From: Candidatus Omnitrophota bacterium
GTDB taxonomy: Bacteria > Omnitrophota > Gorgyraeia > 2-01-FULL-45-10
DNA: 61,753 nt
Direction: 5' to 3'
Assembly: GCA_043798375.1 (NCBI GenBank)
Contig: JAZDOS010000038.1
Span: forward strand, 1-61,753
Part shown: in pieces, positions 44,721-59,538 of the stretch
Position numbering within the stretch: position 1 is the stretch's first letter
How the letters are laid out: each line of letters begins with the position of its first letter
Position numbers and translations under genes: made by a program
The notes under the pieces: generated by a model
Databases searched by the model: none
What the model saw: the letters and a program-made list of their open reading frames with translations, nothing else
Told to the model about the DNA's origin: nothing

Positions 44721-44723
44721 GAA

Positions 44724-44777: not shown

Positions 44778-45512
44778 ATGCTTAAAGACAGGGTTGCGAT
44801 AGTCACAGGCGGTTCCCGCGGGATTGGCAGGGCAATCGTTCTCGAACTCGTAAAGAACGGCGCCAGGGTCGTATTCACGTATCTGAAGAGCGGCGAGGCC
44901 GCCGCGAAACTGTTGGACGAGGTCAAAGAGATGAAAGGCGAGGCCGAAGCCGTCAAGTCCGATTCGCGCGAATACACCCAGGCAAAGGGCGTCATCGATG
45001 AAACGCTTAAGAAATTCGGCCGCCTCGACATCCTTGTCAATAACGCCGGCATCATAAAGGATAAGGCTTTGATGTTCATGGAGCCTTCGGAGTGGCGCGA
45101 TGTCATAGAGACGAACCTTACGGGCTATTTCAATATGGCCAAGGCCTGTATAGTTACGATGATGAAGCAGAAAAGCGGTAATATCATAAATATTTCGTCG
45201 GTGGCCGGTGTCGTGGGAACGCCGCGCCAGGTCAATTACGCGAGCGCCAAGGCCGGCATAGTCGGCCTTACCAAGTCGCTCGCCAAAGAGGTCGCTTCCT
45301 ATAATATAAGGGTGAATGCGGTCGCGCCCGGCTATATCGAAACGGACATGACGAAAGACCTGAAGAATAAAGAAGCGCTGTTGAAGCTGATACCGTCCGG
45401 CAGGCTCGGAAGCCCCGAGGAAGTCGCGAAGGTCGTTTCGTTTTTGGCGGGCGATAAATCGGATTACATAACAGGGCAGGTCATTAAAGTTGACGGCGGA
45501 TTGGCAATTTAA
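44778..45512 (+). CDS. fabG: 3-oxoacyl-ACP reductase
   Basis: TGGSRGIG, NNAG, YASAK, PGYIETDM. Confidence 0.9.
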   Translation: MLKDRVAIVTGGSRGIGRAIVLELVKNGARVVFTYLKSGEAAAKLLDEVKEMKGEAEAVKSDSREYTQAKGVIDETLKKFGRLDILVNNAGIIKDKALMFMEPSEWRDVIETNLTGYFNMAKACIVTMMKQKSGNIINISSVAGVVGTPRQVNYASAKAGIVGLTKSLAKEVASYNIRVNAVAPGYIETDMTKDLKNKEALLKLIPSGRLGSPEEVAKVVSFLAGDKSDYITGQVIKVDGGLAI

Positions 45513-45513
45513 C

Positions 45514-45576: not shown

Positions 45577-45602
45577 TCTCGTAGCGTGAGGAGGTGAGTA
45601 AT

Positions 45603-45851
45603 GTGCCGCAGGTGGACGATTTGATTTTGGAGAAGGAATTAAGGGATATCATCGCCAGGATCGTCGAGATAGATCCGGAGAAGATTACTCTCGAGGCCAA
45701 TTTCGTCGAAGATCTCGGGATGGATTCGATGATGGCGCTTGAGATTTTGGCCGCGATGGAGAAGAAATACAAGATCCAGGTGCCGGAAGAGAAGCTCGGC
45801 AAGTTAAAAAATCTCAAAGAGACGATAAATCTGACGAAGGAATATTTATAA
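45603..45851 (+). CDS. acpP: Acyl carrier protein
   Basis: DLGMDSM phosphopantetheine site; GAGGAGG RBS before GTG 45603. Confidence 0.88.
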   Translation: MPQVDDLILEKELRDIIARIVEIDPEKITLEANFVEDLGMDSMMALEILAAMEKKYKIQVPEEKLGKLKNLKETINLTKEYL

Positions 45852-45855
45852 ATAT

Positions 45856-46278
45856 ATGCTCAACACAGAACAGATAAAAAGTCTCATACCTCAGCGCTTT
45901 CCATTTCTCATGCTTGACAGGGTCACGGATATCAAGGAGGGCGTTTACGTAAAGGCATACAAGAATATCAGTATAGACGAGGACTATTTCCGGGGACATT
46001 TCCCGGACAATCCGGTCTTTCCGGGCGCGCTGATAGCCGAAGGCATGGCTCAGGCGGCCTGTGTCCTGCTGAAAGTAAGCATAAAAGATCTCACCGCGAC
46101 GCAATTTTACGTGACGAACATAAAGATACGGTTATCCAAAGTCGTTGTTCCCGGGGATCGTCTTGAAATATTTGTAAAGACGGTAAAGATGACGCATATC
46201 GGGGGTATCTTCGAGACCGAAGCGTCGGTCGACGGCGCGCAAGTCGCCAAAGGAGAGATGACCTTTGCCTGCAAATAG
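45856..46278 (+). CDS. fabZ: 3-hydroxyacyl-ACP dehydratase
   Basis: PQRFPFLMLD, GHFP..PVFPG...EGMAQ. Confidence 0.9.
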   Translation: MLNTEQIKSLIPQRFPFLMLDRVTDIKEGVYVKAYKNISIDEDYFRGHFPDNPVFPGALIAEGMAQAACVLLKVSIKDLTATQFYVTNIKIRLSKVVVPGDRLEIFVKTVKMTHIGGIFETEASVDGAQVAKGEMTFACK

Positions 46279-47482
46279 GAGAGTCGTCATAACCGGCATA
46301 GGGGCGGTATCGTCCATCGGTATCGGAAAAGATGACTTCTGGAATAATCTTATCGCCGGTAAGTCCGGGATAGGCGAAGTCGAGCGGTTCGGCACTTCGG
46401 AATTTCCGATTCACCGCGCGGGCGAGATAAAAAATTTCAGAGCCGAAGACTTTATGCCGCAGACGATCTGTAAAGCTATCGGCCGCGGTTCACAGCTTGC
46501 CATAGCCGCCGCGAAGCTTGCCCTTGAAGACGGCGATATCAATCTTAAAAAGGATGAGCGCGGGTCTATCGGTATCATTATCGGCACTACGATGGGCGAG
46601 GCGCCGTCCATAGAGATGATAGACAAGTTCTGGACGAGACAGGGCGAAGACGACGTATATCCGTCAAACGTCAGGAACTTTCCGGTGAACAACCTTTCCG
46701 ATAACGTCGCGTTCTTTTTCGGATTGACCAATTATAATTTTGTTATACCGACCGCCTGCGCGGCGGGCAACTACTCGATCGGACTGGCCTTTGACTTAAT
46801 AAGGACCGGCAGGATCGATCTCATGCTTGCCGGCGGAGCCGATCCTTTGTCCAAACTCGCCTTCATGGGATTTAACCGGTTATTCGCGATGGCGCCCGAC
46901 AGATGCCAACCTTTCGATAAGAACCGTAAAGGCATGATGCTCGGTGAAGGCGGCGCGGTTCTTATCGTCGAAGAGATGGCGCACGCCAAAAAGCGCGGCG
47001 CGAAGATTTACGCCGAAGTCTTAGGCTACGGATTGAGCTGTGACGCTTCAAACATGACGATACCAAGCGAAAAAGGTATAGCGAAGGTAATGGAGAAGGC
47101 CATAAAGAACAGCGGCATCAGGAAGGACGACGTTGATTACATATCGGCCCACGGCACGGGCACGGGCTTGAACGACAAAACTGAAACCGCGGCGATCAAG
47201 GATGTGTTCGGCGACAAGGCCAGAGATATCCCAACGAGCTCGATAAAGTCGATGCTCGGCCACACTATGGGCACCGCAAGCGCGTTAGAGGCGATAACTT
47301 GCTGTCTTGCCATGCGCGATAGCGTGATTCCGCCGACCATAAATTACGAAACGCCCGACCCGGAATGCGATATTGACTGCGTCCCGAACAAAGCGCGAAA
47401 GAAAGACGTGTGTATTGCCCTGAACAACTCCTACGCTTTCGGTGGTAACAACGCGTGTGTAGTATTTGGGAAATATAATTAG
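46265..47482 (+). CDS. fabF: Beta-ketoacyl-ACP synthase (active, Cys-His-His)
   Basis: TACAAG, SAHGTGT, KSMLGHT, NSYAFGG. Confidence 0.88.
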   Translation: MPANRRVVITGIGAVSSIGIGKDDFWNNLIAGKSGIGEVERFGTSEFPIHRAGEIKNFRAEDFMPQTICKAIGRGSQLAIAAAKLALEDGDINLKKDERGSIGIIIGTTMGEAPSIEMIDKFWTRQGEDDVYPSNVRNFPVNNLSDNVAFFFGLTNYNFVIPTACAAGNYSIGLAFDLIRTGRIDLMLAGGADPLSKLAFMGFNRLFAMAPDRCQPFDKNRKGMMLGEGGAVLIVEEMAHAKKRGAKIYAEVLGYGLSCDASNMTIPSEKGIAKVMEKAIKNSGIRKDDVDYISAHGTGTGLNDKTETAAIKDVFGDKARDIPTSSIKSMLGHTMGTASALEAITCCLAMRDSVIPPTINYETPDPECDIDCVPNKARKKDVCIALNNSYAFGGNNACVVFGKYN

Positions 47483-47494
47483 AGGAGAGTTGTA

Positions 47495-48370
47495 ATGGAT
47501 CAACAGGTTAAAAAAAATCTCATCGAGTCGTACCAGGTAGACGGCGGCTTTATCGTGTATGATTGCGAAATGTTAAAGAAGATATATAAGGCATACGGCA
47601 TCGACCCGAAAAACTCGACCGATAGAAGGATCTTCGACCTGGAGGGTATAGTCCATTTTTTCCAGAAAGGCGTGGCCGACCTGTTCAAAAGGATCGGCAT
47701 AACGAAAGATGACTATGTCCTGAGCCTCGGCGAGGGAAGCGGCGCCCCTTCGCGGCTATTGGTGAAACTGACCGGCTGCAGGGTTGTCGGGGTGGATGTG
47801 AATCCGGCCCAGGTCAAGAAGGCCAGAGAAATTGCCGTCCTGCACGGAGTCCAGGATAAGGTCAAATATTACGAGCAGAACGTGGAAGAGTTCGATCTCG
47901 ACAAAAAAGATTTTACGAAAGCGTATGTCAACGAGACGTGCGGCCACTGGCAGGATAAGAGGAAGGCCTTCAACCGGATAAACAAGCATCTTGCTAAAGG
48001 CGCCAGGATAGGCTTCAATATATGGCTCGCGGGCGATAAGGGCACGCTGAACGAAGCTTACGACGCCGTCCCGGAATTCCGCCCTCTCTATAAACCGGGG
48101 ATATGGTTCCAGGAGGACCTGGGCGCTTACAAGAAACTGCTCGAGGAAGCGGGTTTCAACATATTGGAGATGGAAGACTGCACGGATGAAGTAGATATCA
48201 GGATACGGGCGAAACTGAAGAGCGGCAAAAGCGAATGGGATACCTACGCCTCCGTGATGGGCCGGAAGGCCGTCGATATCGGGTATGATTACTATAAGGG
48301 GATAGCGCTATCCCATTACGGCTACCTGAAATACGGCGTAGTCATAGCGGAGAAGAAAACGAGCCGTTAA
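47495..48370 (+). CDS. Class I SAM-dependent methyltransferase
   Basis: VLSLGEGSG motif I, VVGVD motif II. Confidence 0.75.
   Translation: MDQQVKKNLIESYQVDGGFIVYDCEMLKKIYKAYGIDPKNSTDRRIFDLEGIVHFFQKGVADLFKRIGITKDDYVLSLGEGSGAPSRLLVKLTGCRVVGVDVNPAQVKKAREIAVLHGVQDKVKYYEQNVEEFDLDKKDFTKAYVNETCGHWQDKRKAFNRINKHLAKGARIGFNIWLAGDKGTLNEAYDAVPEFRPLYKPGIWFQEDLGAYKKLLEEAGFNILEMEDCTDEVDIRIRAKLKSGKSEWDTYASVMGRKAVDIGYDYYKGIALSHYGYLKYGVVIAEKKTSR
48325..48357. repeat. 33-bp direct repeat, copy 1 (MTase 3' end)
   Basis: 32/33 identical to 49607-49639. Confidence 0.9.
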
Positions 48371-48375
48371 TGCCC

Positions 48376-48431
48376 TTGACTATTTTACTAAAATAGAGTA
48401 TACTCCATTTTAGTAATACTAAAATGGAGTA
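48376..48431 (+). promoter_or_regulatory. sigma70 promoter with three alternating 15-bp operator-like repeats
   Basis: TTGACT-N17-TATACT; TACTAAAATAGAGTA, TACTCCATTTTAGTA, TACTAAAATGGAGTA. Confidence 0.75.
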
Positions 48432-48439
48432 ACAAGCCC

Positions 48440-49603
48440 ATGAAAAATATCAAACGGATTTTGAAGATGGAATTGCCGCGGGGGCAATCGGCCTTTTTGT
48501 GGGGAGCCCGCAAGACCGGCAAGACGACGTACCTTAAAGAAAGGTTTCCTGATGGCTTGGTGTATGATTTTCTAAAGACAGATTTATACCTGAATATGGT
48601 CAAGAACCCTTCGCTTTTACGCCAGCAAATACTCGCGAAGGACAATACGGCATTGAAGGAACCTATTATATTGGATGAGGTGCAAAAGGTTCCTCATGTA
48701 CTGGATGAGGTGCATTGGCTGATAGAAAACAGAAAGTTAAGGTTCGTGCTTTGCGGATCGAGCGCCAGAAAACTGAAAAGGGGCCACGCCAATCTTTTGG
48801 GCGGCAGGGCCTGGCGATACGAGATGTTCCCTCTTGTCAGCCGGGAGGTCGGAAAGCTCGATATATTGCGCGCCCTGAATCACGGAATGATACCGGCGCA
48901 TTATTTGCAGGATGAGAAAGAATGCAAGAAATCCCTGGGGGCGTACGTGCAGGATTACCTGCGGGAGGAAGTATTTGCCGAAGGATTGACGCGGAATATC
49001 CCGGCGTTTTCGCGATTCTTTGACGCTTTTGGATATTCTCACGGCGAATTGACCAATTATAATAATATCGCCGGCGAATGCGGCGTCGATTCCAAAACGG
49101 TCAAAGAATACTATCAGATTCTCGTGGATACTTTGCTGGCCATCAGGCTCGAGCCTTTTAAAAAAAGACAATCACGGGATGTGATCATAAAGGCCGCGAA
49201 ATATTATATGTTCGATGTAGGTGTCGCCGGGTATTTGACAAAGAGGCATCTGACGGAACAACGGGGCGCGGAATTCGGCAGGGCATTCGAACATTTTATA
49301 CTGATGGAAGTAGCGGCGTATAGATCTTACAGCGAAAAAGATTTTACCATAAATTTTTGGAGGACGAAATCCGGGCTTGAAGTAGATTTTGTGCTTGGCG
49401 CCGGCGAGGTTTGCTTAGAGGTGAAAGGTGGGAAGCGGCTTGGTAAAAGGGATATGAACGGGATAAGCGTTTTTACCGAAACATATTCACCGAAGAGAAG
49501 CATCATAGTTTGCGGCGAACCGGAGAAGAGGCTCGCCGGGAAAGTGGAGATATTGCCCTGGGAGCAATTTCTGGACGATCTCTGGGATGGCCGTATATTA
49601 TAA
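48440..49603 (+). CDS. AAA+ ATPase (AAA_14 + DUF4143-like)
   Basis: GARKTGKT, DEVQK, GSS, LLGGRA, FWRT..GLEVDF, EVK. Confidence 0.85.
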   Translation: MKNIKRILKMELPRGQSAFLWGARKTGKTTYLKERFPDGLVYDFLKTDLYLNMVKNPSLLRQQILAKDNTALKEPIILDEVQKVPHVLDEVHWLIENRKLRFVLCGSSARKLKRGHANLLGGRAWRYEMFPLVSREVGKLDILRALNHGMIPAHYLQDEKECKKSLGAYVQDYLREEVFAEGLTRNIPAFSRFFDAFGYSHGELTNYNNIAGECGVDSKTVKEYYQILVDTLLAIRLEPFKKRQSRDVIIKAAKYYMFDVGVAGYLTKRHLTEQRGAEFGRAFEHFILMEVAAYRSYSEKDFTINFWRTKSGLEVDFVLGAGEVCLEVKGGKRLGKRDMNGISVFTETYSPKRSIIVCGEPEKRLAGKVEILPWEQFLDDLWDGRIL

Positions 49604-49606
49604 TCG

Positions 49607-49639
49607 CCTGAAATACGGCGTCGTCATAGCGGAGAAGAA
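49607..49639. repeat. 33-bp direct repeat, copy 2
   Basis: 32/33 identical to 48325-48357. Confidence 0.9.
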
Positions 49640-49651
49640 GAGGGAAGCATA

Positions 49652-50950
49652 ATGGCTAAGAGGGTTGTGATAACAGGGTTAGGGCCTATATCATCTGTGG
49701 GGATTGGGTGCGGTGCGATGTGGGATTCGATTTTGAACAAACGCCTTAATCTTGTTAAAAAGACTTATTCGGTCGATAACGAAAAATGGGGAGAGTTTTA
49801 TCTGCATAAAATCAAAAATTTTAATATTAAGGATTTTAACCTTCCAAAAGAAAATTTTAGATTTATCAGCGAAACAAGGACTGTAAAGAAAGAAGACACG
49901 GATCTTTACTACTTTTTAGCGGTAATAAAATTGGCCATCGATGACAGCGGGCTCAAATATGACTACGAACGGAATGACATCGGTTTGATTTTGACTCAAG
50001 AAAATCCGGGCATTGAGATCTTTTTTGAAGAGTTGATGGATTCCGCATATGAGATATTTAATCGCCTGAAAGAGAAGAAGGTATCCAAGTTAAAATTGGC
50101 GCAGGAAATCTATCGATCCGGCGCCGAAGAGAGAGGCTACAATCTGCAAACGTTCTCGTATCTTTTCTCAACCGCCAAAGTTTTTGACCTGCATGGATAT
50201 TCGCTATTTATAAATAACGCGTGCGCGTCGGGCCTATTTGCCATCGAGGCCGCGGCGCAGCAGATACGCGCGGGCACTTCGCCTGCCGTAGTAGTAGCCG
50301 CTTGCGATGATCCTACGAGGATATATAAATATTTGTGGTTTAAAAGGAACAAGCTATATGCCGAAGATGGCATCACCAGGCCGTTTTCGACCGATTCAAA
50401 CGGCATTGTTTTCGGTGATGGGGGAGCCGCCCTGGTTTTAGAGGATCTGGAATATGCCAGAAAAAGAAAAGCGCGCATATACGCCGAATATCTTGGGGGC
50501 GGTTTTTCTTTAGAAGGCTGGAAGGTAACAGTACCGAATATCGCCGATGATTTTTATACGAGATCATTCAAAAAAGCCCTCAATAATTCAAAGATAAAGC
50601 CTGACGAGATTGACCTCGTGAATCCGCATGGTGTTGGGATGAAAATTACGGATACATATGAAGCGAACACGATCAACAATATTTTTAAGGACAGGAAACC
50701 GTCAATCAGCGCTTTTAAGCCGTTGGTAGGCCACAATTTGGGCGGAAGCGCTCTGCTTGAAACTGCCATTTCACTGCTGGCTTTGAAAAATAATGTCATC
50801 CCGGCTACATTAAACTGCGAGAACCAGAACACAAAACTTAACCTTAATATTGTCAAAGAAAATAAGAAAACAAAGCTCGATACCGTTGCCAAAATGTCGT
50901 GCGGTTTTTCCGGGTTTAACGGTGTTTGTATTTTTAGAAAATATAGCTAA
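49652..50950 (+). CDS. Divergent beta-ketoacyl synthase
   Basis: NACASG, NPHGVG, KPLVGHNLG retained; divergent N-terminal half. Confidence 0.82.
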   Translation: MAKRVVITGLGPISSVGIGCGAMWDSILNKRLNLVKKTYSVDNEKWGEFYLHKIKNFNIKDFNLPKENFRFISETRTVKKEDTDLYYFLAVIKLAIDDSGLKYDYERNDIGLILTQENPGIEIFFEELMDSAYEIFNRLKEKKVSKLKLAQEIYRSGAEERGYNLQTFSYLFSTAKVFDLHGYSLFINNACASGLFAIEAAAQQIRAGTSPAVVVAACDDPTRIYKYLWFKRNKLYAEDGITRPFSTDSNGIVFGDGGAALVLEDLEYARKRKARIYAEYLGGGFSLEGWKVTVPNIADDFYTRSFKKALNNSKIKPDEIDLVNPHGVGMKITDTYEANTINNIFKDRKPSISAFKPLVGHNLGGSALLETAISLLALKNNVIPATLNCENQNTKLNLNIVKENKKTKLDTVAKMSCGFSGFNGVCIFRKYS

Positions 50951-50977
50951 CCTTTTCTATGTCTATTTCAAGGATAT

Positions 50978-51568
50978 GTGGTTATGAGGGTAATGATATT
51001 AGATGGATCAGATAAAAATGATGACGCGATGAATAATGCCCGTCAAATAACCGAGAAGTTCTTTAAGAGTGCAAACCACGAGATTAATGCTTTTACTCTT
51101 CGGGATTTACGCATAGCGCCATGTTGTGGTTTTTTTTGTTGTTGGATAAAAACCCCCGGTATTTGTATTGTAAACGATATAGCGTGTGATATTGGAAAAA
51201 GTGCCATGATTAGCGATTATTGGATATTTTTTACACCAGTTACATTTGGTGGATATTCATCAGAGCTTAAAAAAGCAATCGACAGAATGACCCCTATTCT
51301 ATTACCACATTTTACTAAAGCAAGAGGAGAGGTGCATCATAAGCCTCGCTACGAAAATCATCCTCATCTTGTAGTTTTCGGATCAACTAAAAACTACGAT
51401 GCGGAAATCGAAGATATTTTTAATAGCCTTACTCAAAGGAATTCTATCAATTTTCATAACAGGTCAGTTGCTAGCAAAGTTATTTTACAGACCGATAGTT
51501 TAAATACGATTAAAGCGAAGGTTATAGAAGCATTTAGCAAGGTAGTTATCAATCGAGAGTATGAATAA
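50978..51568 (+). CDS. Flavodoxin-like / iron-sulfur flavoprotein family protein
   Basis: ILDGS, PCCGFFCCWIKTPGIC, TPVTFGGYSSELKKAIDR. Confidence 0.72.
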   Translation: MVMRVMILDGSDKNDDAMNNARQITEKFFKSANHEINAFTLRDLRIAPCCGFFCCWIKTPGICIVNDIACDIGKSAMISDYWIFFTPVTFGGYSSELKKAIDRMTPILLPHFTKARGEVHHKPRYENHPHLVVFGSTKNYDAEIEDIFNSLTQRNSINFHNRSVASKVILQTDSLNTIKAKVIEAFSKVVINREYE

Positions 51569-52286
51569 AAGAATTCTTTTTTTAATAGGAAGTCCAAAGC
51601 CTAAGGCTGAAAGCGCCTCTGTATCAATTGAAGCGCGGTTTATAAAGTGCTTCCGTAAAAAATCTTTTGATCTAAAGAGGATTAATCTTGCGCAAGCCGT
51701 TACAACAGAAGTTGATAAAAATATACTGCTTGCCGCAGTGGACAATAGTGACATCCTTGTTTTAATAAGCCCTGTTTACTTGGATACTGCACCGTCATTT
51801 GTAATCAAGGCGATGGAGTTCTTAAATAAAAAGAAACATTTGATAAATACTCCGAAGAAGATGCTTGCCATTTCTATTTGTGGTTATCCAGAAGCCTTTC
51901 ATAACGATACGGTTTTGCGAGTTTATAAGCGTTTTGCAGACGATATGGGTTTTATATGGATTGGCGGCCTAGCAATTGGGGAAGGTCCAGCTTATGTTTA
52001 TGGACGGCAAATATTTTCAGCAATTGGTATGTATCATTGGCTGAAAAAATCTATTGCTTTAATTGCTCACGCACTTGTGGAGGGAAAGACAGTACCAGAA
52101 GAAGCCATAGAACTTATGAAAATATCGGTTATTCCTAATTGGCTTTACACACAAGTGGGTATTTTATGTGTAAAAATATTAGCCCTCAAAAATGGCGTGT
52201 GGAATTTATATAACCGTCCTTATGCCTTGCAGCCTTATAGGGATGTGTTAAAAACTGAGAGTCGAACGAACGGATCCGGAAAATGA
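51561..52286 (+). CDS. NAD(P)H-dependent FMN reductase-like flavoprotein
   Basis: LIGSPK, SPVYLD, CGYPE, WIGGLAIG. Confidence 0.7.
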   Translation: MNKRILFLIGSPKPKAESASVSIEARFIKCFRKKSFDLKRINLAQAVTTEVDKNILLAAVDNSDILVLISPVYLDTAPSFVIKAMEFLNKKKHLINTPKKMLAISICGYPEAFHNDTVLRVYKRFADDMGFIWIGGLAIGEGPAYVYGRQIFSAIGMYHWLKKSIALIAHALVEGKTVPEEAIELMKISVIPNWLYTQVGILCVKILALKNGVWNLYNRPYALQPYRDVLKTESRTNGSGK

Positions 52287-54430
52287 ATTTTTATGTATTA
52301 TCCAGCTTTATAGCGAGTATATCTCTGTTAGCAATGGGCATGTTTATGTTCATAAATAGTAAATCTCGAATACATATAAGGATATGGGGTTATGCTTGTT
52401 TCAGCGTATTGTTCTGGCAGGTAGGTAGTTTTGGATTTTCTACAGCAACGTCTAAAGAAATGGCATTCTACTGGTGGCAGTTTGCGCATATAGGAACAAT
52501 GCTTGCGCCACCCATATTTTTCCACTTCGTCTGTCTTTATCTCGGGATCAGAAAAAAATGGCTACAAGTTTCTGCATATATCATTTCAATCCTTTTTATA
52601 ATGATAAATTTTTATTGGGGCAGATATTTTATAGGAGATTTACGACTTACATCCGATCATTTCTATTATATAGACTGGTTTCATTATCGTAATCCCCTTT
52701 TTATTCTTTATTATTTAATGGCTTATGTCCTGCTACTGGGGTATTCCTTTATTATATTGGTGAAAAATTTTATGCTTTCTCATGGTATTCGACGTAAACA
52801 ATACAAATATTTTATTATAGGATCGATTGTTGGTTGGAGTGGTCCAATAGGAATAATAATTTCTTATTTCAGGATCGATTTATATGCTTATACTAATTTT
52901 CTCATGGGGATATTCCCACTTATAATGGGTTACGCCATTATTCGTCATCAATTGATGGATATTGAAGTAATTATAAAGAAGACACTTGTTTTTGCCGGAC
53001 TTTTAGCTTCAGTTTTTGCGATATTGATTCTACCTACATTACTCATCCAGGAATATATATTAAGGGCTGCAAATTTTGGCGGTAGAATGATAGGCCTTAC
53101 AATTAGCGGTATCATAATAATTTTGACCATGCGCCGGATCGAGACGTTCCTCATAAACATCACCGACAAATACCTCTTCCAGAAGAAATACGATTATAAG
53201 GAATTACTGAAGACTTTTACGTCAGAAGTTCTTACGGTATTAGAGCTGGATAAACTCATGGATCTTACTATTAGCAAACTTACTGATATCGTTAAGCTGA
53301 ATTCCTGTGCCGTGCTGCTCTTCGACGACGAGAAACAACAGTTTGAAGTTATGGCGTCTCATAACATAAAAGATCCGTCAATAACGTTGATACGGCCGGA
53401 CGGGATCGTTACGTTCATGGACGAGACGCACGGTTATATACTCGTAAAAGAGATGCGCGATAAGAAGATATCGATACCGGCATCCATACAAGAAATAATA
53501 GATAAGCTTAACGCCGAGCTTATCATCCCCATGGTCATGCACGACGAAGTCATCGGAGTCCTGTCGCTCGGCAAGAAGAAATCGGACGAGGAATATACAC
53601 AGGATGATCTCGACATACTCTTACCGCTGGCCAAGACGCTCGCGATAGCGATATCGAACGCCCAGCTTTTCGTCGAGCTCGGGAAGACACAGGCGGAGGC
53701 GGCGCAGAACGAAAAAATGGCGGTTATCGGGACGCTTTCGGCCGGCATTAATCACGAGATCTGTAACCCCCTCGGCATCGCGCGCGGCCAATGCGAGGCG
53801 TTTCTCCTGAATATCAAAGATGGCCTGTATAAGCATAAGACTACAGAGGAACTTTTTGCCAAGGCAAAAGAGATTATGGCGAAAGTCATACATGAAACGG
53901 ACAGGGCGACGTCCATCACGAAGAAGCTTTCCGGATTTGCCAAACCCGCGAAGGGCGAATCGGAAAGTGTCAATGTAGACAAGGAAATCGAGGATGTGAT
54001 CGGCCTGGTGGGTTATGAATTGAAACTCGAGAAGATAGAATTTACCAAAGATATCGAGAAGGATCTGCCGAATATCTTCGTCGATAAGAAGCAGTTTCAG
54101 GAGGTCCTTTTCAACTTAATCAGGAACGCCGGGCAGGCGATCGGAGAGAGGGGCAAGATTGCGATCACGGCAAAACAGGATAGAAATAAGGTATTCATAG
54201 ATATCAAGGATAGCGGCTCGGGCATACCTGAAGACAAGATAAAACAGCTCTTTAATCCGTTCTTTACGACTAAGGACCCGGGAAAGGGAACGGGCCTGGG
54301 GCTCTTCATTGTCCGCCAGGTCGTCGAAAAGAACGGCGGCAGGATACATCTCAAAGAGACAAAGGTCGGCGAGGGAACGACGTTCACGCTCGAATTCCCA
54401 GCAGTGATCGAGGAAGCAAAGACAAAATAA
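52283..54430 (+). CDS. Membrane sensor histidine kinase (multi-TM N-terminus, GAF, HisKA, HATPase)
   Basis: About 7-9 TM helices; GAF-like region; HEICNPL, NLIRNA, DSGSGI, FFTTK, GTGLGL. Confidence 0.92.
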   Translation: MNFYVLSSFIASISLLAMGMFMFINSKSRIHIRIWGYACFSVLFWQVGSFGFSTATSKEMAFYWWQFAHIGTMLAPPIFFHFVCLYLGIRKKWLQVSAYIISILFIMINFYWGRYFIGDLRLTSDHFYYIDWFHYRNPLFILYYLMAYVLLLGYSFIILVKNFMLSHGIRRKQYKYFIIGSIVGWSGPIGIIISYFRIDLYAYTNFLMGIFPLIMGYAIIRHQLMDIEVIIKKTLVFAGLLASVFAILILPTLLIQEYILRAANFGGRMIGLTISGIIIILTMRRIETFLINITDKYLFQKKYDYKELLKTFTSEVLTVLELDKLMDLTISKLTDIVKLNSCAVLLFDDEKQQFEVMASHNIKDPSITLIRPDGIVTFMDETHGYILVKEMRDKKISIPASIQEIIDKLNAELIIPMVMHDEVIGVLSLGKKKSDEEYTQDDLDILLPLAKTLAIAISNAQLFVELGKTQAEAAQNEKMAVIGTLSAGINHEICNPLGIARGQCEAFLLNIKDGLYKHKTTEELFAKAKEIMAKVIHETDRATSITKKLSGFAKPAKGESESVNVDKEIEDVIGLVGYELKLEKIEFTKDIEKDLPNIFVDKKQFQEVLFNLIRNAGQAIGERGKIAITAKQDRNKVFIDIKDSGSGIPEDKIKQLFNPFFTTKDPGKGTGLGLFIVRQVVEKNGGRIHLKETKVGEGTTFTLEFPAVIEEAKTK
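54350..54424. repeat. 75-bp imperfect direct repeat, copy 1 (kinase 3' end)
   Basis: Matches 55880-55954 with mostly third-position differences. Confidence 0.88.
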
Positions 54431-54450
54431 CAATTAAAGATGTATAGTAT

Positions 54451-55941
54451 ATGGTAAAAGATAAATACGATGTTATTATCATAGGTGCCGGAATATCAGG
54501 ACTTATAGCAGGTACGCACCTTGCAAAAAACGGACTTAAAGTTCTTATCGTCGACAAGAATAATATTGCCGGCGGTTGTTATACATCTTTCAGACGGAAT
54601 GGTTTCATGTTTGATGCCGGTGCGCAAGTTATTGGCAGCAGCGGCAGATCAAATGTGCTTGGTTCAATTTTGAATTCACTGGAAGTCGACATTGATTTTG
54701 TGAAATTAAAAGTTACCGATTTAGTACACTTCCCGAAAGAGACGATGCCGGTCGATGGTGATTCCGAAAAATTCAAAACATACTTAAAAGAAAGGTTCAA
54801 AACCGAGAAAGATAATATCGAAAGGTTTTTCAAGATATTCTCCGAAGCAGATGGCAGTTTAAAAATATTATACGTGATGAGGAAATACGCGGATTTTACC
54901 TATCAACAGGTGTTGGACGGCTTCTTTAAAAATGATATTCTTAAAAGTATTTTTTCCTCCCAAGCGGGATACTTAGGGCTTCCGCCGAAAAAGGTCTCGG
55001 CTGTTTCAGCAATATTATTGTTAAAAACTTATATTATTGATGGCGCGTATTATCCGATGGGCAGTTCTCAGGCACTGAGCGATGCCATTGTCGGCACATT
55101 TAAGAAATTTGGCGGAACTTTATTATTGAATTCAGAAGTAAAAAAAATATTAATAAGGACTAATACCGCTAAAGGGATATTATTGGATGATATGGAGTTT
55201 TTGTCCGATTTTATAATTATAGCATCGGATATCAAGCGTGCGTATACAAAATTACTAGAACCAAACCAAATAAGAATTAACAGAGAGTTTTATACAAAAC
55301 TAAATAGATTTAAACTGGGAGATTCAGGCTGTATTTTATATCTTGGCATATCAAAGAACGTTAATTTAGAGAATATGAATGGGTGGTATTATTCGTCATA
55401 CGACATAAACAGGGCATTTAAAACATTTATGAATGTGCATACTCCGACACAATATGATAAGTCGCTTTCGAAAAGTGGCGATAATATTCTTATAGCAACA
55501 TTTCCTTTTTGTTATGCGGAGGACAGAAAAACAGAGCGAAAAGAATTCAAAATCAACCTCATGAAAAAATTATTGTCTAGGTTGGAAGAGCGCATACCGG
55601 AGATTAAGGGAAATATTATTATGAAAGAACTTGCAACGCCTTTAACGATCGAAAGGTATACTTTTAATTCAGGCGGGTCTCTTTATGGATGGGCTCAATT
55701 ACCTAATCAGACTCATAAGAACTGCTTCCCAATTGGTTCACCAGTGAAAGGGCTGTTTCACGCAGGGCATTGGACTTTGCCCGGTGGTGGCATCGTAGCT
55801 GTGGCAACATCAGGGATCAATGCGGCTAAGAGAATTTTAAAAAAGATTGAAATGAGTAGAAAAACTTTTATCACCGTACCTCAAAGAGACGAAGGTCGGC
55901 GAGGGGACGACGTTTACGCTCGAATTCCCCGCAGCGACTGA
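54451..55941 (+). CDS. FAD-dependent oxidoreductase, phytoene desaturase-like
   Basis: IIGAGISG, GG, FDAG, TPLTIERYT...GSLYG, GLFHAGHW..PGGG. Confidence 0.82.
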   Translation: MVKDKYDVIIIGAGISGLIAGTHLAKNGLKVLIVDKNNIAGGCYTSFRRNGFMFDAGAQVIGSSGRSNVLGSILNSLEVDIDFVKLKVTDLVHFPKETMPVDGDSEKFKTYLKERFKTEKDNIERFFKIFSEADGSLKILYVMRKYADFTYQQVLDGFFKNDILKSIFSSQAGYLGLPPKKVSAVSAILLLKTYIIDGAYYPMGSSQALSDAIVGTFKKFGGTLLLNSEVKKILIRTNTAKGILLDDMEFLSDFIIIASDIKRAYTKLLEPNQIRINREFYTKLNRFKLGDSGCILYLGISKNVNLENMNGWYYSSYDINRAFKTFMNVHTPTQYDKSLSKSGDNILIATFPFCYAEDRKTERKEFKINLMKKLLSRLEERIPEIKGNIIMKELATPLTIERYTFNSGGSLYGWAQLPNQTHKNCFPIGSPVKGLFHAGHWTLPGGGIVAVATSGINAAKRILKKIEMSRKTFITVPQRDEGRRGDDVYARIPRSD

Positions 55942-55972
55942 AGAAGCGAAGACAGAAGTAAAGGGTAAATAA
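55880..55972 (+). pseudogene. Orphan histidine kinase C-terminal fragment (copy 2 of the repeat)
   Basis: Reads LKETKVGEGTTFTLEFPAATEEAKTEVKGK-stop, versus kinase LKETKVGEGTTFTLEFPAVIEEAKTK-stop. Confidence 0.8.
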
Positions 55973-55987
55973 GGTTTCGCTATGCCT

Positions 55988-56038
55988 GTAATTTATCCTG
56001 ATAAATTACTTGACAAAAGCAAATTGTCATGGTAGATT
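55988..56038 (+). promoter_or_regulatory. Putative promoter with adjacent palindromes
   Basis: GTAATTTATC-CT-GATAAATTAC dyad; TTGACA-N17-TAGATT. Confidence 0.55.
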
Positions 56039-56047
56039 TATAATATC

Positions 56048-57187
56048 ATGAAGATATTGAAAAGATTATTGAAAATCGATCTTCCAAAAGGCAAGTCCGC
56101 CTTTCTCTGGGGCCCGAGAAAGGCGGGAAAGACCTATTGGATCAGGCATCATTTGAAAGACGCCTTAATTATAGATCTTCTAAAGACCGATGTGTTCGCC
56201 GAATATGCCGCCAGGCCCTCTCTTTTAAGGGAACGGCACGGAGACGAAAAAAGGCTGATAGTGATAGATGAGGTTCAAAAAATACCCATTCTGCTTGACG
56301 AAGTGCATTGGCTTATCGAGAATAAGGGGCTTTCTTTTCTGCTCACCGGTTCAAGCGCGAGAAAGTTGAGGCGGGGACACGCGAATTTACTTGGAGGAAG
56401 GGCGTGGCGTAAGATTATGACCCCGCTATCCATGCTCGAAGTCGATTCGATCGACTTGGAAAGAATTATGTATTCCGGCCTTTTGCCGCCTCATTACCTA
56501 TCCCAGGATCCAACCGAGGATCTTCGCGCCTATGTGTCGGATTATTTGAAAGAAGAGATTTCGGCGGAAGCGCTTGTCGGGAACATTCCGGCGTTTTCGG
56601 AGTTTTTAAGAGTAGCCGCCATAACCTCAAGCGAGCTCATTAATTATGTTAATATAGCGAGGGAGACGGGCGTATCTCATAGGGTTGTCCGGAATTATTT
56701 TGACATATTGGAAGATACCTATTTGGGGTTCCGGATACCGCCATGGCGTAAATCAAAGACCAGGCGTATGATACTTACGGAGAAGTTCTATCTTTTCGAT
56801 GTAGGAGTGGCCAATTATCTGGCGCGGCGGCGCCCCATGATAGGAAGCGCCGAATTCGGAAAATCTTTTGAGCATTATATCCTGATGGAACTGCGGTCCT
56901 ACCAGGTTTATAAAGATCCGGACATTCCTATATCTTTTTGGAGGACAAGCGCGGGGCAGGAAGTGGACTTTATATTAGGCGACATGGAGACGGCCGTCGA
57001 AATAAAAGGCTCCAGCCGGGTCCATAACGGCAATCTCCGGTCCCTTATGGCGTTAAAAGAGGACGGGCCGGTCAAGCATATGATAGTGGTTTCTCTCGAA
57101 AGAGAGCCGAGAAAGATCGCGCCCAACGTCGAGATTCTGCCATGGCGGATCTTTATCGAGAGATTGTGGAATGGAGATTATTGCTAA
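56048..57187 (+). CDS. AAA+ ATPase (AAA_14 + DUF4143-like), paralog of 48440-49603
   Basis: GPRKAGKT, DEVQK, LDEVHWLIEN, GSSARKL, GHANLLGGRAWR shared with the first copy. Confidence 0.85.
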   Translation: MKILKRLLKIDLPKGKSAFLWGPRKAGKTYWIRHHLKDALIIDLLKTDVFAEYAARPSLLRERHGDEKRLIVIDEVQKIPILLDEVHWLIENKGLSFLLTGSSARKLRRGHANLLGGRAWRKIMTPLSMLEVDSIDLERIMYSGLLPPHYLSQDPTEDLRAYVSDYLKEEISAEALVGNIPAFSEFLRVAAITSSELINYVNIARETGVSHRVVRNYFDILEDTYLGFRIPPWRKSKTRRMILTEKFYLFDVGVANYLARRRPMIGSAEFGKSFEHYILMELRSYQVYKDPDIPISFWRTSAGQEVDFILGDMETAVEIKGSSRVHNGNLRSLMALKEDGPVKHMIVVSLEREPRKIAPNVEILPWRIFIERLWNGDYC

Positions 57188-57188
57188 A

Positions 57189-57560
57189 ATGAAAAAACCA
57201 CGGATAGTAGCGATCGATGACGAGGTGGACTTTATTACGATGCTCGAGGATTACTTCAAGCCGAGGGGATACGATATCGATGTGGCGATACGCGGCGCGA
57301 AGGGCATCGAGATCGTGAAAGAGAAGAAGCCGGATGTGGTTTTGATTGACCTGAAGATGCCCGGCATTGACGGCGACGAGGCCCTGAAACTGATAAAGTC
57401 GATGGATCCGTCGCCCCAGGTCATTTTTGTAACGGCGTATGACGACGGCGGGAAGACCAAAGCGCGGCTTTTGAAGATGGGCGCGTACGCCTATTTCGAT
57501 AAGCCGATCGCGTCATTAAAGGAGCTGGAAGAAACTATTAACAAAGCGGCAAGCCGGTAA
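57189..57560 (+). CDS. Single-domain response regulator
   Basis: DDE, DLKMP, TAY, KP. Confidence 0.9.
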   Translation: MKKPRIVAIDDEVDFITMLEDYFKPRGYDIDVAIRGAKGIEIVKEKKPDVVLIDLKMPGIDGDEALKLIKSMDPSPQVIFVTAYDDGGKTKARLLKMGAYAYFDKPIASLKELEETINKAASR

Positions 57561-57572
57561 CCGAAAAGGGGT

Positions 57573-57938
57573 ATGGGTATGCGTAAGTTGTTAGTAGTGG
57601 ACGATGAGAAGGAAATCTGCGATTTCATGAAGAACTTTTTTCAGGAACGCGGATACGAAGTCTTCATTTCTCTGAGCGGCGAGGACGCGCTGGAGGCCAT
57701 CAAGAAGGACAAGCCCGATCTCGTATTACTCGACATTAAAATGAAGGGCATGGACGGGATTGCCGCGTTGAAGCATATCAAGGATATGGACAAGAAGATA
57801 AAAGTCGTTATGGTCACCGCGCTCGAGGATCAGGAGAAGATGAACGAGGCATGCAAACTCGGAGCGTGCGAATATATCACAAAACCGCTTATGCTCGACC
57901 ATCTGGAAGAAGCCGTCGAGAAGAACTTTAAAATCTAA
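57573..57938 (+). CDS. Single-domain response regulator
   Basis: VDDE, DIKM, TA, KP. Confidence 0.9.
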   Translation: MGMRKLLVVDDEKEICDFMKNFFQERGYEVFISLSGEDALEAIKKDKPDLVLLDIKMKGMDGIAALKHIKDMDKKIKVVMVTALEDQEKMNEACKLGACEYITKPLMLDHLEEAVEKNFKI

Positions 57939-57950
57939 AGGAGATGATTA

Positions 57951-59336
57951 ATGGCAAAGAACAAAAAGGCGCCGAGCTGGGATAAGCTCCACAATCTTTT
58001 CGTCGAGAAATCGATAGACCGGAGCGGCAATCTCGTGCCGCTCGATGCCGGCAAGAACGCCGTCGACGGCGCCCAGAGGGGCGCCGCAAACAACGCAGTG
58101 CCCAAATACGACTATCAGGCGTTTCTCGAGCAGGCGTCGCGCACGATGATAAGGTTCAAGAAGCCGGAGCACCTTATCAAGATGATAGTGCGCACTATCG
58201 ACGAGCAGCTTCACGTTACCCACACGGCGGTCCTGTTATTCAAGGAAAACAAGCACTCATATATATTGATCGATTCAAAAGGCACCGAAGGCGTCAAGAT
58301 ACCGATAGGATTCATAAAATTGGCGGTGGAAAATCCGCTCATCAAAGTATTCAGCGATAAGGAGAGCTATCTTATTTCGGAGACCGGCATATTAAGGTAT
58401 GAGGATATTATAAACGGCCTGAGGAACAGGGAAGTCCTCGAGAAACAACCCAACCTATACGACAAATTGCTCCTGATAAAGAGGCAGATGGACCTTATTA
58501 AGGCGAATCTATGCGTGCCGTGTTACTTCAAGCGGGAACTTCTCGGCATTCTGGTCCTGGGTGATAAGATTTCGGGAGAGAGCTTCAGCCGCGAGGAGAT
58601 GGGATTTTTTGTTACGCTGGCCAATGACGCCGCTATGGCGATCGCGAATACGCTGTTGATCGAGAACCTGCAGACCAAGATCGAGGAGATCAAAGAGCTG
58701 TATGTGCGCGAGCATAGGATTTTCATCCACACGGCAATAGCGATGGCCGCCGCGATAGACGCGCGCGACCCTTACACGCACGGCCATACGGAGCGCGTGA
58801 CGAATTACTGCATCGCCGTCGCGAAGGAGCTCGATGGCATTCCCGAAATGGCGAATTATAAGAATTTCCGCGAGACCCTGCAGATCGCGGCGCTCCTGCA
58901 CGACATAGGTAAGATCGGCGTCCCCGACCATATATTGAACAAGCACGCCTCGCTCGCCCCGGAGGAATACGAAGAGATAAAGAAGCATTCGATAATAGGC
59001 GCGACGATCCTGCATCCGATCAAGGAACTGAGCGACGTGGCGCGAGAGGTCCGCCACCACCAGGAATGCTACGACGGCTCGGGCTATCCGGACGGGCTGA
59101 AGGCCAACGACATCCCGCTCATCGCCCGGATCATCTCCGTTTGCGACGCCTTCGACGCCATCACGACGAACCGGCCGTATAAGAAGAAGAAGACGATTGA
59201 AGAGGCGATCGCGGAGCTCAAGCGCTGTTCCGGGTCGCAATTCGATCCGGTTGTGGTGAGCGCGTTCCTCCTGGCGTTCGAAAAGGGCAACATCCTTCCG
59301 AACAAGGATAATCCAGGCAGTTACAAGAACTGGTAA
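57951..59336 (+). CDS. GAF + HD-GYP phosphodiesterase
   Basis: YTHGHTERV, LHDIGK, HQECYDGSGYPDGL, RPY, GSQFDP. Confidence 0.9.
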   Translation: MAKNKKAPSWDKLHNLFVEKSIDRSGNLVPLDAGKNAVDGAQRGAANNAVPKYDYQAFLEQASRTMIRFKKPEHLIKMIVRTIDEQLHVTHTAVLLFKENKHSYILIDSKGTEGVKIPIGFIKLAVENPLIKVFSDKESYLISETGILRYEDIINGLRNREVLEKQPNLYDKLLLIKRQMDLIKANLCVPCYFKRELLGILVLGDKISGESFSREEMGFFVTLANDAAMAIANTLLIENLQTKIEEIKELYVREHRIFIHTAIAMAAAIDARDPYTHGHTERVTNYCIAVAKELDGIPEMANYKNFRETLQIAALLHDIGKIGVPDHILNKHASLAPEEYEEIKKHSIIGATILHPIKELSDVAREVRHHQECYDGSGYPDGLKANDIPLIARIISVCDAFDAITTNRPYKKKKTIEEAIAELKRCSGSQFDPVVVSAFLLAFEKGNILPNKDNPGSYKNW

Positions 59337-59461
59337 TGATTGCGGAAATTTCCAACTATATCTAACTTTTTTATAATCTTACCTAGTTTCATAATTCCTT
59401 TAATTACAATAAGTTACAATCCTTATATATTAAATTTTAAGAGACTAAAAACCAAGACCCC

Positions 59462-59489
59462 TTGACACTTGCGGATCTTGTGGTAAGCT
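59462..59489 (+). promoter_or_regulatory. Putative sigma70 promoter
   Basis: TTGACA-N16-TAAGCT with TGn extension. Confidence 0.5.
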
Positions 59490-59538
59490 TTAAGTACTTA
59501 AAAACTTATTCTCGCTTGGCAGAAAGTGGTGAGAATAA

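Follow-up and report, generated by a model that had tools for sequence, protein, structure and literature searches.

A flavoprotein-kinase sensor block exchanged as a unit within a conserved lipid-type locus of Omnitrophota, a candidate 'lipid pherotype' cassette

Here we describe a block of AT-rich codons at positions 50923-53124 of the contig JAZDOS010000038.1 (GenBank assembly GCA_043798375.1) from a Candidatus Omnitrophota bacterium; the whole contig, 61,753 nucleotides long, is referred to as the window. The block covers two flavoprotein genes, designated flav1 and flav2, and only the N-terminal, sensor-bearing part of the histidine kinase gene that follows them, and it lies within a run of plus-strand genes at 41852-59336 (Pfam and NCBIfam scans). 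Comparison with relatives shows that the flav1-flav2-sensor block is inherited and exchanged as a unit, independent of the conserved kinase core and the output chain. The surrounding locus is conserved in Omnitrophota and has the order ketosynthase (KS), FabG, acyl carrier protein (ACP), FabZ and KS, followed by variable tailoring genes, the kinase, two receivers and a GAF-HD-GYP protein. The reading that we favour, and to which we give about an even chance of being right, is that the AT-rich block occupies the variable tailoring slot of this locus as a cassette inherited together and open to horizontal exchange, that the product of the pathway is a self-made signal and that the cassette types are private 'lipid pherotypes'. 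The block, its genes and the parts of the kinase are as follows.

50923..53124, plus strand: AT-rich block, the exchanged cassette, comprising flav1, flav2 and kinase codons 1-280; G+C content at third codon positions (GC3) 0.31; delimited by segmentation and by a change point at codon 280.
50978..51568, plus strand: flav1, NADPH-dependent FMN reductase family, with a Cys-rich motif; Pfam FMN_red (PF03358) 42.9 bits against a cut-off of 24; GC3 0.29.
51561..52286, plus strand: flav2, flavodoxin-like-fold or FMN-reductase-like protein; Pfam matches below both cut-offs (PF03358 and PF02525, 22.0 and 19.7 bits); GC3 0.32.
52283..54430, plus strand: kinase of 715 residues with HisKA_7TM, GAF, DHp and HATPase_c domains; GC3 0.50 overall.
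52283..52930, plus strand: kinase residues 1-216, hypervariable seven-helix sensor (HisKA_7TM, Pfam PF16927, 59.5 bits against a cut-off of 28.6, residues 10-227).
52931..53124, plus strand: kinase residues 217-280, conserved hairpin of the eighth and ninth transmembrane helices (TM8-TM9) with AT-rich codons (GC3 0.29), 68-88% identical to orthologues; the likely crossover zone.
53125..54430, plus strand: kinase residues 281-715, conserved core of juxtamembrane segment, GAF, DHp and HATPase_c; GC3 0.63; Pfam GAF_3 and HATPase_c.

A first-pass annotation of this DNA had claimed, by eye, that the composition turns AT-rich over both flavoprotein genes and the membrane region of the kinase, between 50951 and 53125, and then returns to genome-typical codons within the same open reading frame (ORF). 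Binary segmentation of the third codon positions over 43479-59336 bears this out, the computed break points (50923 and 53125) lying 28 nt away on the left and 0 nt on the right. GC3 is 0.64 in 43481-49155, 0.49 in 49156-50922, 0.31 in the block (50923-53124, 724 codons), 0.63 in 53125-54414, 0.36 in 54415-55898, 0.53 in 55899-56979 and 0.72 in 56980-59336, most genes of the window having values of 0.60-0.69; the block, flav1 (0.29) and flav2 (0.32) thus contrast with the 0.63-0.64 of the segments 43481-49155 and 53125-54414. Within the kinase gene GC3 is far from uniform: in sliding windows of 40 codons it is 0.17-0.45 over codons 1 to ~280 and 0.6-0.78 later, with a partial dip to 0.38-0.50 at codons ~290-370. 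Splitting the gene once gives a log-likelihood ratio of 36.7, whereas none of 500 shuffles exceeds 7.3; no other of the genome's 245 ORFs of at least 450 amino acids shows so strong a GC3 shift, the runner-up reaching 22.4. A GC3 below 0.40 is found in just 4.0% of the 1094 ORFs of at least 150 amino acids. In the locus, AT-richness extends beyond the block to a CrtI-like oxidase (GC3 0.37) and, at an intermediate level, to a third ketosynthase-like gene, KS3 (0.48).

Hydrophobic codons are ruled out as the cause of the AT-richness. The sensor combines a hydropathy of 0.75 with a GC3 of 0.31, whereas the median GC3 of 216-codon windows across the genome is 0.61 at hydropathies of 0.5-0.9 (n=99) and 0.62 above 0.9 (n=67); because such membrane-like windows keep a high GC3, transmembrane codon usage does not explain the drop. 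The composition break, at codon ~280, lies ~60 codons inside the conserved part of the protein, which starts at residue ~216 (YAI.RHQLMDIEVIIKKTLVFAGLL) and includes two further membrane helices (233-262 and 265-298). Identity to the closest core, that of protein P0012, rises from 60-65% in residues 251-270 to 95-100% in the residues from 271 onwards. AT-rich codons running on into a conserved segment are what would be left by a crossover within the TM8-TM9 segment.

The sensor and the core of the kinase differ sharply in conservation. Orthologous kinases (E <= 1e-100) occur in 29 of the 40 genomes of the family, the window's own genome (G000) counted; the genome collections used hold one genome per species. 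Against 11 orthologues, residues 1-230 of the window kinase are 25.2-30.6% identical and residues 276-715 76.1-90.7%, and in two genomes of the same genus the sensor and core values are 28.5 and 90.7%, and 25.3 and 87.7%. The sensor is therefore far less conserved than the core (25-31% versus 76-91%), as expected by the first-pass annotation. For a wider comparison, 102 proteins with orthologous cores were assembled, consisting of those of at least 690 amino acids among 120 listed from a collection of 5.8 billion proteins, plus P0001, P0006, P0008 and P0009; truncated sequences below that length were excluded, as were the paralogues P0005, P0007 and P0010. Columns conserved at 90% or more number 3 of 216 in the sensor and 291 of 499 in the later part of these proteins, and single linkage at 45% divides their sensors into 44 types. 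Residues 481-500 are invariant among the 102 cores. The kinase core is also unusually conserved for this genome family, exceeding the neighbouring KS1 and FabG (70-83% in the same genomes).

Sensor identity is, moreover, independent of core identity. Among 65 distinct full-length kinases (23 from family genomes and 42 from a wider scan of genome contigs, duplicates removed), the median sensor identity of the 2080 pairs is 26-28% in every core-identity bin, from 30-50% through 90-100%, and Spearman's rho between sensor and core identity is 0.04. Proteins with nearly identical cores can carry very different sensors: core and sensor identities are 97.5 and 29.5% for P0017/P0018, 96.1 and 27.5% for P0112/P0120, 95.2 and 32.9% for P0065/P0080, and 98.4 and 54.0% for P0062/P0065. 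In such pairs identity climbs from ~20-30% to 95-100% within residues ~215-240.

Conversely, the sensor type of the window kinase is found on differing cores. A search with the sensor alone returned six proteins that carry it, with the following identities to the window kinase.

P0006: sensor 76%, linker 80%, core 71%.
P0005: sensor 71%, linker 51%, core 28%.
P0007: sensor 67%, linker 60%, core 28%.
P0008: sensor 53%, linker 88%, core 79%.
P0009: sensor 53%, linker 86%, core 83%.
P0010: sensor 44%, linker 27%, core 32%.

The trees of the two parts conflict. In the core tree G000 groups with G001 (support 86) and G002 (92), members of its genus, and a grouping of G000 with G047, from another genus, is rejected (p-AU 8.5e-5). 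In the sensor tree, by contrast, G000 groups with G047 (support 100) and the genus clade is rejected (p-AU 1e-54). These are quick LG+G4 trees, in which the genus group was set beforehand, the G000+G047 group being chosen with knowledge of the similarity.

The two flavoprotein genes follow the sensor rather than the core. In G047, flav1, flav2 and the sensor are 62, 61 and 75% identical to those of the window, and the backbone shows values of 73% for KS1, 70% for FabG, 73% for KS2, 71% for the kinase core, 73% for the first receiver (RR1) and 71% for the HD-GYP protein. In the same-genus G001 the core is 91% identical, the receivers 90-92% and the HD-GYP protein 95%, but the sensor only 29%; flav genes are missing there, and an Fe-S protein occupies the place of flav1 and flav2. 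G003 and G022 have distant flav genes (flav1 44-45%, flav2 31-35%) together with sensors of 25-26%. A scan of metagenomes with the sensor returned one locus, the contig L125, in which flav1 (51%, cut short by the contig end), flav2 (60%) and the sensor (66.5%) are joined through a linker of 60% to a core that is 28.6% identical, the kinase being followed by unrelated receivers. The flav1-flav2-sensor unit has thus moved between kinase families. The same association is seen in 1953 pairs of kinases with an upstream gene on both sides; kinase pairs share ancestry, and these counts are therefore descriptive and overstate independence.

Sensors at least 50% identical: 14 pairs; adjacent gene homologous in 9 and at least 50% identical in 7.
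Sensors 40-50% identical: 23 pairs; adjacent gene homologous in 4 and at least 50% identical in 3.
Sensors 30-40% identical: 332 pairs; adjacent gene homologous in 37 and at least 50% identical in 4.
Sensors less than 30% identical: 1584 pairs; adjacent gene homologous in 104 and at least 50% identical in 3.

KS3, which is present in the slot of 8 of 23 family loci, behaves similarly. On the sensor tree its presence requires 2 changes, a number that 0 of 1000 label shuffles get down to; the core tree requires 5, equalled in 86 of 1000 shuffles. The suggestion that enzyme genes and receptor sensor are exchanged together is upheld as a strong, though not absolute, tendency by G047, by L125, by the pair counts (9 of 14 versus 104 of 1584) and by the conflict between the trees.

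It could be argued that these patterns need no functional coupling between enzymes and sensor, and that a fast-evolving or weakly constrained stretch drifts to AT and is co-inherited by adjacency, with recombination break points set by the conserved flanks. Indeed, the core has a higher GC3 than the sensor in 61 of the 65 kinases (median difference 0.18) and a higher GC3 than the adjacent gene in 58 of 63 (median difference 0.17), as would be expected of AT-biased mutation where selection or GC-biased conversion is weak. In G022 the composition mirrors the window gene for gene (KS3 0.60, flav1 0.35, flav2 0.29, sensor 0.34 and core 0.63). The cassette pool is thus AT-rich as a lasting trait, one common to nearly all relatives, and the composition is not the sign of one recent import. 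Adjacent genes are also expected to transfer together, and there are counter-examples to coupling: the sensors of G014 and G043 are 69% identical and their adjacent oxidases only 33%, while those of G003 and G004 are 43% identical and have different neighbours. The sensor is, however, not decaying. Its model has seven confident helices (per-residue confidence, pLDDT, of 87-98), its frame is open in 27 of 28 matches of at least 50% identity (the exception, in G015, has two in-frame stops) and sensor types are kept at 45-76% across genera. Furthermore, drift cannot yield sensors of 27-33% beside cores of 95-98% with a step over ~20 residues, the flav1-flav2-sensor unit stayed intact after its move to a different kinase family, and KS3, which does not adjoin the sensor, nevertheless has a pattern of presence that follows the sensor tree. 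We therefore regard an absence of coupling as quite improbable.

An artefact, in which a chimeric assembly or a binning error joined a low-GC and a higher-GC organism within the conserved part of the kinase, is scarcely credible. The genome is admittedly a bin of 58 contigs (1.46 Mb, GC 0.488) with an estimated contamination of 4.24%. The low/high/low/high pattern would, however, need at least 4 chimeric joins in 6 kb; the same architecture and contrast in composition recur in 61 of 65 kinases from many independent assemblies, G022 among them; and the kinase is a continuous, well-folding ORF.

The remaining genes of the run, all on the plus strand, were assigned by Pfam scans that covered all ORFs from 41852 to 61675.

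41852..43036, plus strand: SGNH/GDSL-type esterase gene at the upstream edge of the lipid cluster; Pfam Lipase_GDSL_2, NCBIfam GDSL matches below cut-off.
43479..44720, plus strand: KS1, FabF-like beta-ketoacyl-ACP synthase, conserved backbone; Pfam ketoacyl-synt N and C domains; GC3 0.64; 92% to G001.
44778..45512, plus strand: FabG-like ketoreductase (short-chain dehydrogenase/reductase), conserved backbone; Pfam adh_short_C2, E 3.6e-66; 94% to G001.
45594..45851, plus strand: ACP; Pfam PP-binding, E 3.9e-15.
45856..46278, plus strand: FabA/FabZ-like dehydratase; Pfam FabA, E 5.2e-27.
46265..47482, plus strand: KS2, FabF-like synthase, the last backbone gene before the variable slot; NCBIfam PRK07314, 423 bits against a cut-off of 387, and Pfam; 91% to G001.
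47495..48370, plus strand: S-adenosylmethionine-dependent methyltransferase, a tailoring gene of genome-typical composition; Pfam Methyltransf_23/25/11; GC3 0.68.
48440..49603, plus strand: AAA1, AAA_14/DUF4143 ATPase gene (Pfam), an insertion between 33-nt direct repeats.
49652..50950, plus strand: KS3, divergent ketosynthase-like gene, semi-variable; Pfam ketoacyl-synt; intermediate GC3 of 0.48.
54451..55941, plus strand: CrtI/phytoene-desaturase-like FAD oxidoreductase, a second AT-rich tailoring gene, located after the kinase; Pfam Amino_oxidase, NCBIfam crtI_fam 138 bits (below cut-off); GC3 0.37.
55880..55957, plus strand: remnant copy of the kinase 3' end; 87% to 54350-54427, and by tblastn 88% to residues 689-714.
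56048..57187, plus strand: AAA2, second AAA_14/DUF4143 ATPase gene (Pfam); 49% to AAA1 by BLASTP.
57171..57938, plus strand: RR1 (57171-57560) and RR2 (57573-57938), conserved single-domain response regulators; Pfam Response_reg.
57951..59336, plus strand: GAF-HD-GYP protein, conserved output; Pfam HD_5, E 1.2e-39, plus GAF; 95% to G001.

Several of these genes link the locus to those of relatives. An orthologue of the SGNH esterase (82%) adjoins KS1 in G002 (L057), and the methyltransferase occurs in some relatives only (74% in G002, 70% in G053). KS3 is 72% identical to its counterpart in G001, in which the backbone genes are 91-96% identical, and 44% to that of G047. The receivers are 90-92% identical to those of G001 and 69-73% to those of G047. 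The kinase core has a HATPase_c match of 87.7 bits, and its H-box (HE..NPLG) and its N, G1 and G2 boxes are seen in the translation. In the GAF-HD-GYP protein the HD (317) and GYP (378) motifs are intact; it is a probable cyclic di-GMP (c-di-GMP) phosphodiesterase.

The part of the locus upstream of the kinase is a variable slot. In 19 of the 25 kinase loci of relatives RR1 directly follows the kinase, normally with RR2 and the HD-GYP gene next, and the genes before the kinase differ widely. Scans of 51 of the 115 upstream ORFs, those not already labelled by their likeness to the window's genes, revealed nitroreductases, CrtI-like oxidases, several types of methyltransferase, FMN reductases, Fe-S proteins, DUF362, a PlsC-type acyltransferase, fatty-acyl reductases (NAD_binding_4), GMC oxidoreductases, aldehyde dehydrogenases, acyl-CoA ligases, B12-radical-SAM enzymes, START/cyclase proteins and HMG-CoA reductase. 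One relative has a LuxD-like acyltransferase fused to a methyltransferase next to its kinase, and one locus has a FadL-type outer-membrane channel. To judge from these assignments, the slot genes of relatives fit a role in modifying or transporting a molecule derived from fatty acids. Tandem arrays of two to four kinases of the 7TM-GAF type, with tailoring genes between them, occur at L034 (G008), L076, L064 and L084 and adjoin the conserved kinase-receiver-HD-GYP chain; such arrays could be a source or store of cassettes.

Two genes of the window's locus are flanked by direct repeats. AAA1 stands alone between direct repeats of 33 nt (48325-48357 and 49607-49639, 32 of 33 positions identical), of which the first copy is the 3' end of the methyltransferase gene. 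The gene is absent from this place in the loci of relatives examined, and an 80% orthologue lies elsewhere in G022, before KS1 (L031, 1403-2794), between 40-nt repeats that are 83% identical. The 1.46 Mb genome has 11 DUF4143 matches. From this arrangement AAA1 looks like a single-gene mobile or selfish element that duplicates its target or carries a copy of it. On either side of the CrtI-like oxidase stands a copy of the final 78 nt of the kinase gene (54350-54427 and 55880-55957); the copies are 87% identical, differ at 10 of 78 positions and both look genus-like. The oxidase ORF reads out of frame through the second copy, and its last ~25 residues are therefore not native. An insertion of the oxidase at the kinase 3' end and the deletion of a second oxidase-plus-kinase module down to its last 26 codons are equally possible.

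Elsewhere in the window there are further AT-rich islands, which are ordinary accessory genes. One (39251-41781, GC3 0.31-0.34) comprises a fusion of a LexA DNA-binding domain, an S24 peptidase and an N6/N4 DNA methylase together with a Tsp45I-type restriction enzyme; it is unusual for a restriction-modification system to be controlled through the fusion of its methylase to a LexA-like repressor. The other is a small gene (33457-33816, GC3 0.33) of the 23S rRNA intervening-sequence protein family between tsaD and a gene of the MgtC family.

The sensor belongs to the HisKA_7TM family, as the match to PF16927 exceeds the gathering score and the boxes of the kinase core are present. An AlphaFold2 (AF2) model of residues 1-300, built with 64 sequences, has a mean pLDDT of 89.5 and a predicted TM-score (pTM) of 0.78, with pLDDT values of 87-98 per 10-residue block over residues 1-220; the mean pLDDT of the full-length kinase model is 80.0. 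The model predicts seven helices, with a short beta hairpin in the loop at 119-131, followed by the conserved two-helix hairpin. A sequence search of PDB chains with residues 1-300 gave 0 matches at E <= 1, and a Foldseek search of the PDB gave 0 matches at E <= 0.001. VIA-align places receptors of the G-protein-coupled receptor (GPCR) type on top, the best being ADGRL3 (Z 16.9, root-mean-square deviation 4.2 A, 220 residues), with Z of 13-17 over ~200-230 residues, about 13-15 for many GPCRs, ~13 at rank 50 and identities of 3-12%; helical bundles, however, reach Z ~13 by arrangement alone, and the GPCR-like match of the model reflects a common way of packing helices, which proves neither homology nor function. 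For flav2, a structure search of the ESM Atlas found a TM-score of 0.85 to FMN_red clusters, and the protein is probably a member of the NADPH-dependent FMN reductase family with a flavodoxin-like fold. The relatives of flav2 in the ESM Atlas include clusters in which a flavodoxin-like domain is fused to an SCP2 lipid-carrier domain, and double-flavodoxin forms of ~460 residues that resemble the 462-residue protein before the kinase of G048. These relatives are a hint that the flavoproteins may act on lipids.

The stop of flav2 and the start of the kinase gene share 4 nt (ATGA), an overlap suggestive of translational coupling, and flavoproteins and Fe-S proteins adjoin the kinase in loci of the KS3 type. 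These features are in line with a coupling through protein contact, in which the adjacent enzymes would dock on the 7TM domain, to hand over a product or report a redox state, such that co-variation reflects a protein-protein interface. The genes adjacent to the kinase, however, span many unrelated folds, each of which would need its own interface to one helix-bundle scaffold, and a shared end-product of the pathway is a simpler common factor. An explanation by protein contact is thus very improbable.

In the exchangeable-cassette reading that we favour, replacement would proceed by homologous recombination in conserved flanks, the left crossover falling among the conserved biosynthetic genes and the right one within the kinase gene, in its conserved TM8-TM9/juxtamembrane segment (near codons 270-280 in the window). 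The tailoring enzymes would set the final chemistry of a fatty-acid-derived molecule and the variable GPCR-like helix bundle would bind this product of the pathway; enzyme and sensor would therefore have to be swapped together to stay matched. The GAF-DHp-CA core would then relay the signal through the two receivers to the HD-GYP enzyme and the hydrolysis of c-di-GMP. We infer that the product is secreted and acts as a signal between cells.

The main rival to this reading is that the locus resembles a serotype locus. The cluster would make a variable envelope or membrane lipid, diversified by pressure from phages, predators or host contact, and the 7TM kinase would be a feedback sensor fitted to the lipid of the cell's own membrane, with no talk between cells. 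The evidence for co-exchange fits this proposal equally well. Loci for surface structures typically hold hypervariable, AT-rich sets of genes flanked by conserved ones, and O-antigen and capsule loci diversify likewise under such pressure. In addition, the variable part of the kinase is almost wholly membrane-embedded, an SGNH esterase opens the cluster, and some relatives hold genes for a PlsC-type acyltransferase and PgpA, which point to membrane lipid metabolism. Neither a secretion or export gene nor a synthase of a known signal class was seen in the window by the Pfam scans, which counts against a released signal; the missing export gene also favours an envelope lipid. It should be emphasized, however, that a homeostatic sensor of a bulk lipid would not obviously need at least 44 specificities on near-identical cores. 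Furthermore, the Pfam scans found no enoyl reductase and no glycerolipid assembly genes in the window, and relatives include one with a FadL-type channel and another with a LuxD-like acyltransferase next to the kinase. On balance we consider an envelope lipid unlikely, though much the most serious of the alternatives.

Several further points weigh against the exchange of matched signal cassettes. Transfer is not dated by composition, as AT-richness persists in nearly all relatives. Third-position identity at conserved residues is ~0.5 even within the genus, and synonymous sites are thus saturated for dN/dS tests of selection. The nearest cassette is only 61-76% identical, and a single recent donor of the block, which was sought among the relatives, was not found. 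The pairs with near-identical cores are known as proteins alone, apart from gene context and species, and an order-wide genome search returned no genome holding P0017 or P0018 (best match 72%). The junctions at 50923 and 53125 are known from the assembly alone, no public sequencing runs being listed for 50500-56100. Among the 14 pairs with similar sensors, 5 lack a homologous neighbour, although at least 2 of these involve an ORF fragment at a contig end (L121), and KS3 does not track the flav/sensor type, its identity to G047 being 44%. To these are added the two counter-examples, the shared ancestry of the kinase pairs and the limited meaning of the GPCR-like match that are described above.

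A more far-reaching proposal, which we put forward as possible if doubtful, is a phylum-wide combinatorial system of lipid pherotypes. It would comprise dozens of private fatty-acid-derived signals, made by swappable tailoring enzymes and read by matching GPCR-like sensors on one invariant kinase/receiver/HD-GYP chain, with AT-rich cassettes moving between lineages and even between kinase families. By such means ultra-small and probably host-attached Omnitrophota might tell kin or partner from non-kin or non-partner and set their c-di-GMP. If true, this would be the first lipid-based counterpart of agr and comQXP, and its diversity would greatly exceed that of both. With a signal as the product, the locus would offer a large natural library of matched enzyme-receptor pairs for lipid recognition by bacterial seven-helix sensors and a first handle on social or host recognition in Omnitrophota; with an envelope lipid instead, it would represent a new type of serotype locus that comes with its own sensor. 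Under either reading, the break points at residues ~216-280 mark where to cut for sensor swaps.

The design of the locus has precedents in peptide signalling. In agr, according to passages of PMC10482373, a hypervariable region extends over the signal-making genes and the sensor part of AgrC, the kinase core and the regulator are conserved, and the alleles are signalling groups. Likewise, the variable block here covers adjacent enzyme genes and an N-terminal membrane sensor with a sharp step, at residues ~215-240, to a conserved core: flav1 and flav2 are 31-62% identical and the sensors 25-31%, versus 76-91% for the core and 69-95% for the receivers and HD-GYP protein. The four pairs with cores of 95-98% and sensors of 27-54%, which are proteins of unassigned species, bear on the matter of alleles within species. 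In contrast to agr, in which the ribosomal peptide AgrD is processed by AgrB, the variable genes here are redox or lipid-tailoring enzymes; there are four types within S. aureus, compared with 44 types among 102 orthologues across the phylum; and the output is not a DNA-binding regulator but two stand-alone receivers and a GAF-HD-GYP enzyme. The locus also matches the design of the ComQXPA pherotypes of Bacillus subtilis, as described in a passage of PMC6334282: a modifying enzyme is followed by the sensor half of a kinase, with the break point inside the kinase gene. The signal of that system is, however, the isoprenylated peptide ComX, whereas here the pathway resembles fatty acid synthase (FAS) and no precursor peptide was seen, and polymorphism within species, which is documented in Bacillus, is here only suggested by the pairs with near-identical cores. 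Pfam scans of the ORFs from 41852 to 61675 found no peptide precursor or processing enzyme (AgrD/AgrB, ComX/ComQ) and only FAS-like, flavoprotein, oxidase, methyltransferase, ATPase and signalling domains. Thus, the locus is not a member of the agr or comQXP systems, and the likeness is one of design.

Lipid signalling offers further parallels. The Xanthomonas Rpf system leads, according to the abstracts of PMC5391125 and PMC4159695, from a fatty-acid signal (diffusible signal factor, DSF) through a membrane histidine kinase to an HD-GYP c-di-GMP phosphodiesterase. The present locus likewise combines a lipid pathway, a membrane kinase and an HD-GYP output, the kinase being followed by receivers and the GAF-HD-GYP protein. 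RpfG is a fusion of a receiver (REC) with HD-GYP; the present locus instead encodes its receivers on their own, and its HD-GYP enzyme has a GAF domain. Pfam scans of the window ORFs revealed no RpfF-type crotonase (ECH) domain. We know of no hypervariable cassette structure described for rpf. The nearest lipid case, judged by published co-phylogeny, is the Phc system of Ralstonia, the signal of which is fatty-acid-derived, methyl 3-hydroxymyristate or methyl 3-hydroxypalmitate; the trees of PhcB and PhcS, and not that of PhcR, group strains by signal type independent of phylotype, as reported in passages of PMC5462968. A lipid synthase (the methyltransferase PhcB) and its receptor (the kinase PhcS) thus co-vary. 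Phc has, however, two types only, it is whole proteins that co-vary, a cassette with an intragenic break point is not described in those passages, and the window's own methyltransferase (47495-48370) lies outside the AT-rich block.

HisKA_7TM (PF16927), which the window sensor matches at 59.5 bits, is named in the available parts of open-access papers and bioRxiv preprints only in domain censuses and reviews of archaeal and eukaryotic kinases, with no ligand or function described, and no description of the present Omnitrophota locus was found in open-access papers or bioRxiv. New here are the break point inside the kinase gene, the measurements showing that sensor and core vary independently, and the co-variation of enzyme and sensor. 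Polymorphic signal-receptor cassettes are known from a few peptide systems of Firmicutes and one two-type lipid system of Ralstonia; this study extends the same design to an uncultured phylum, a FAS-like pathway and a ligand-orphan sensor family, with at least 44 sensor types on one chain.

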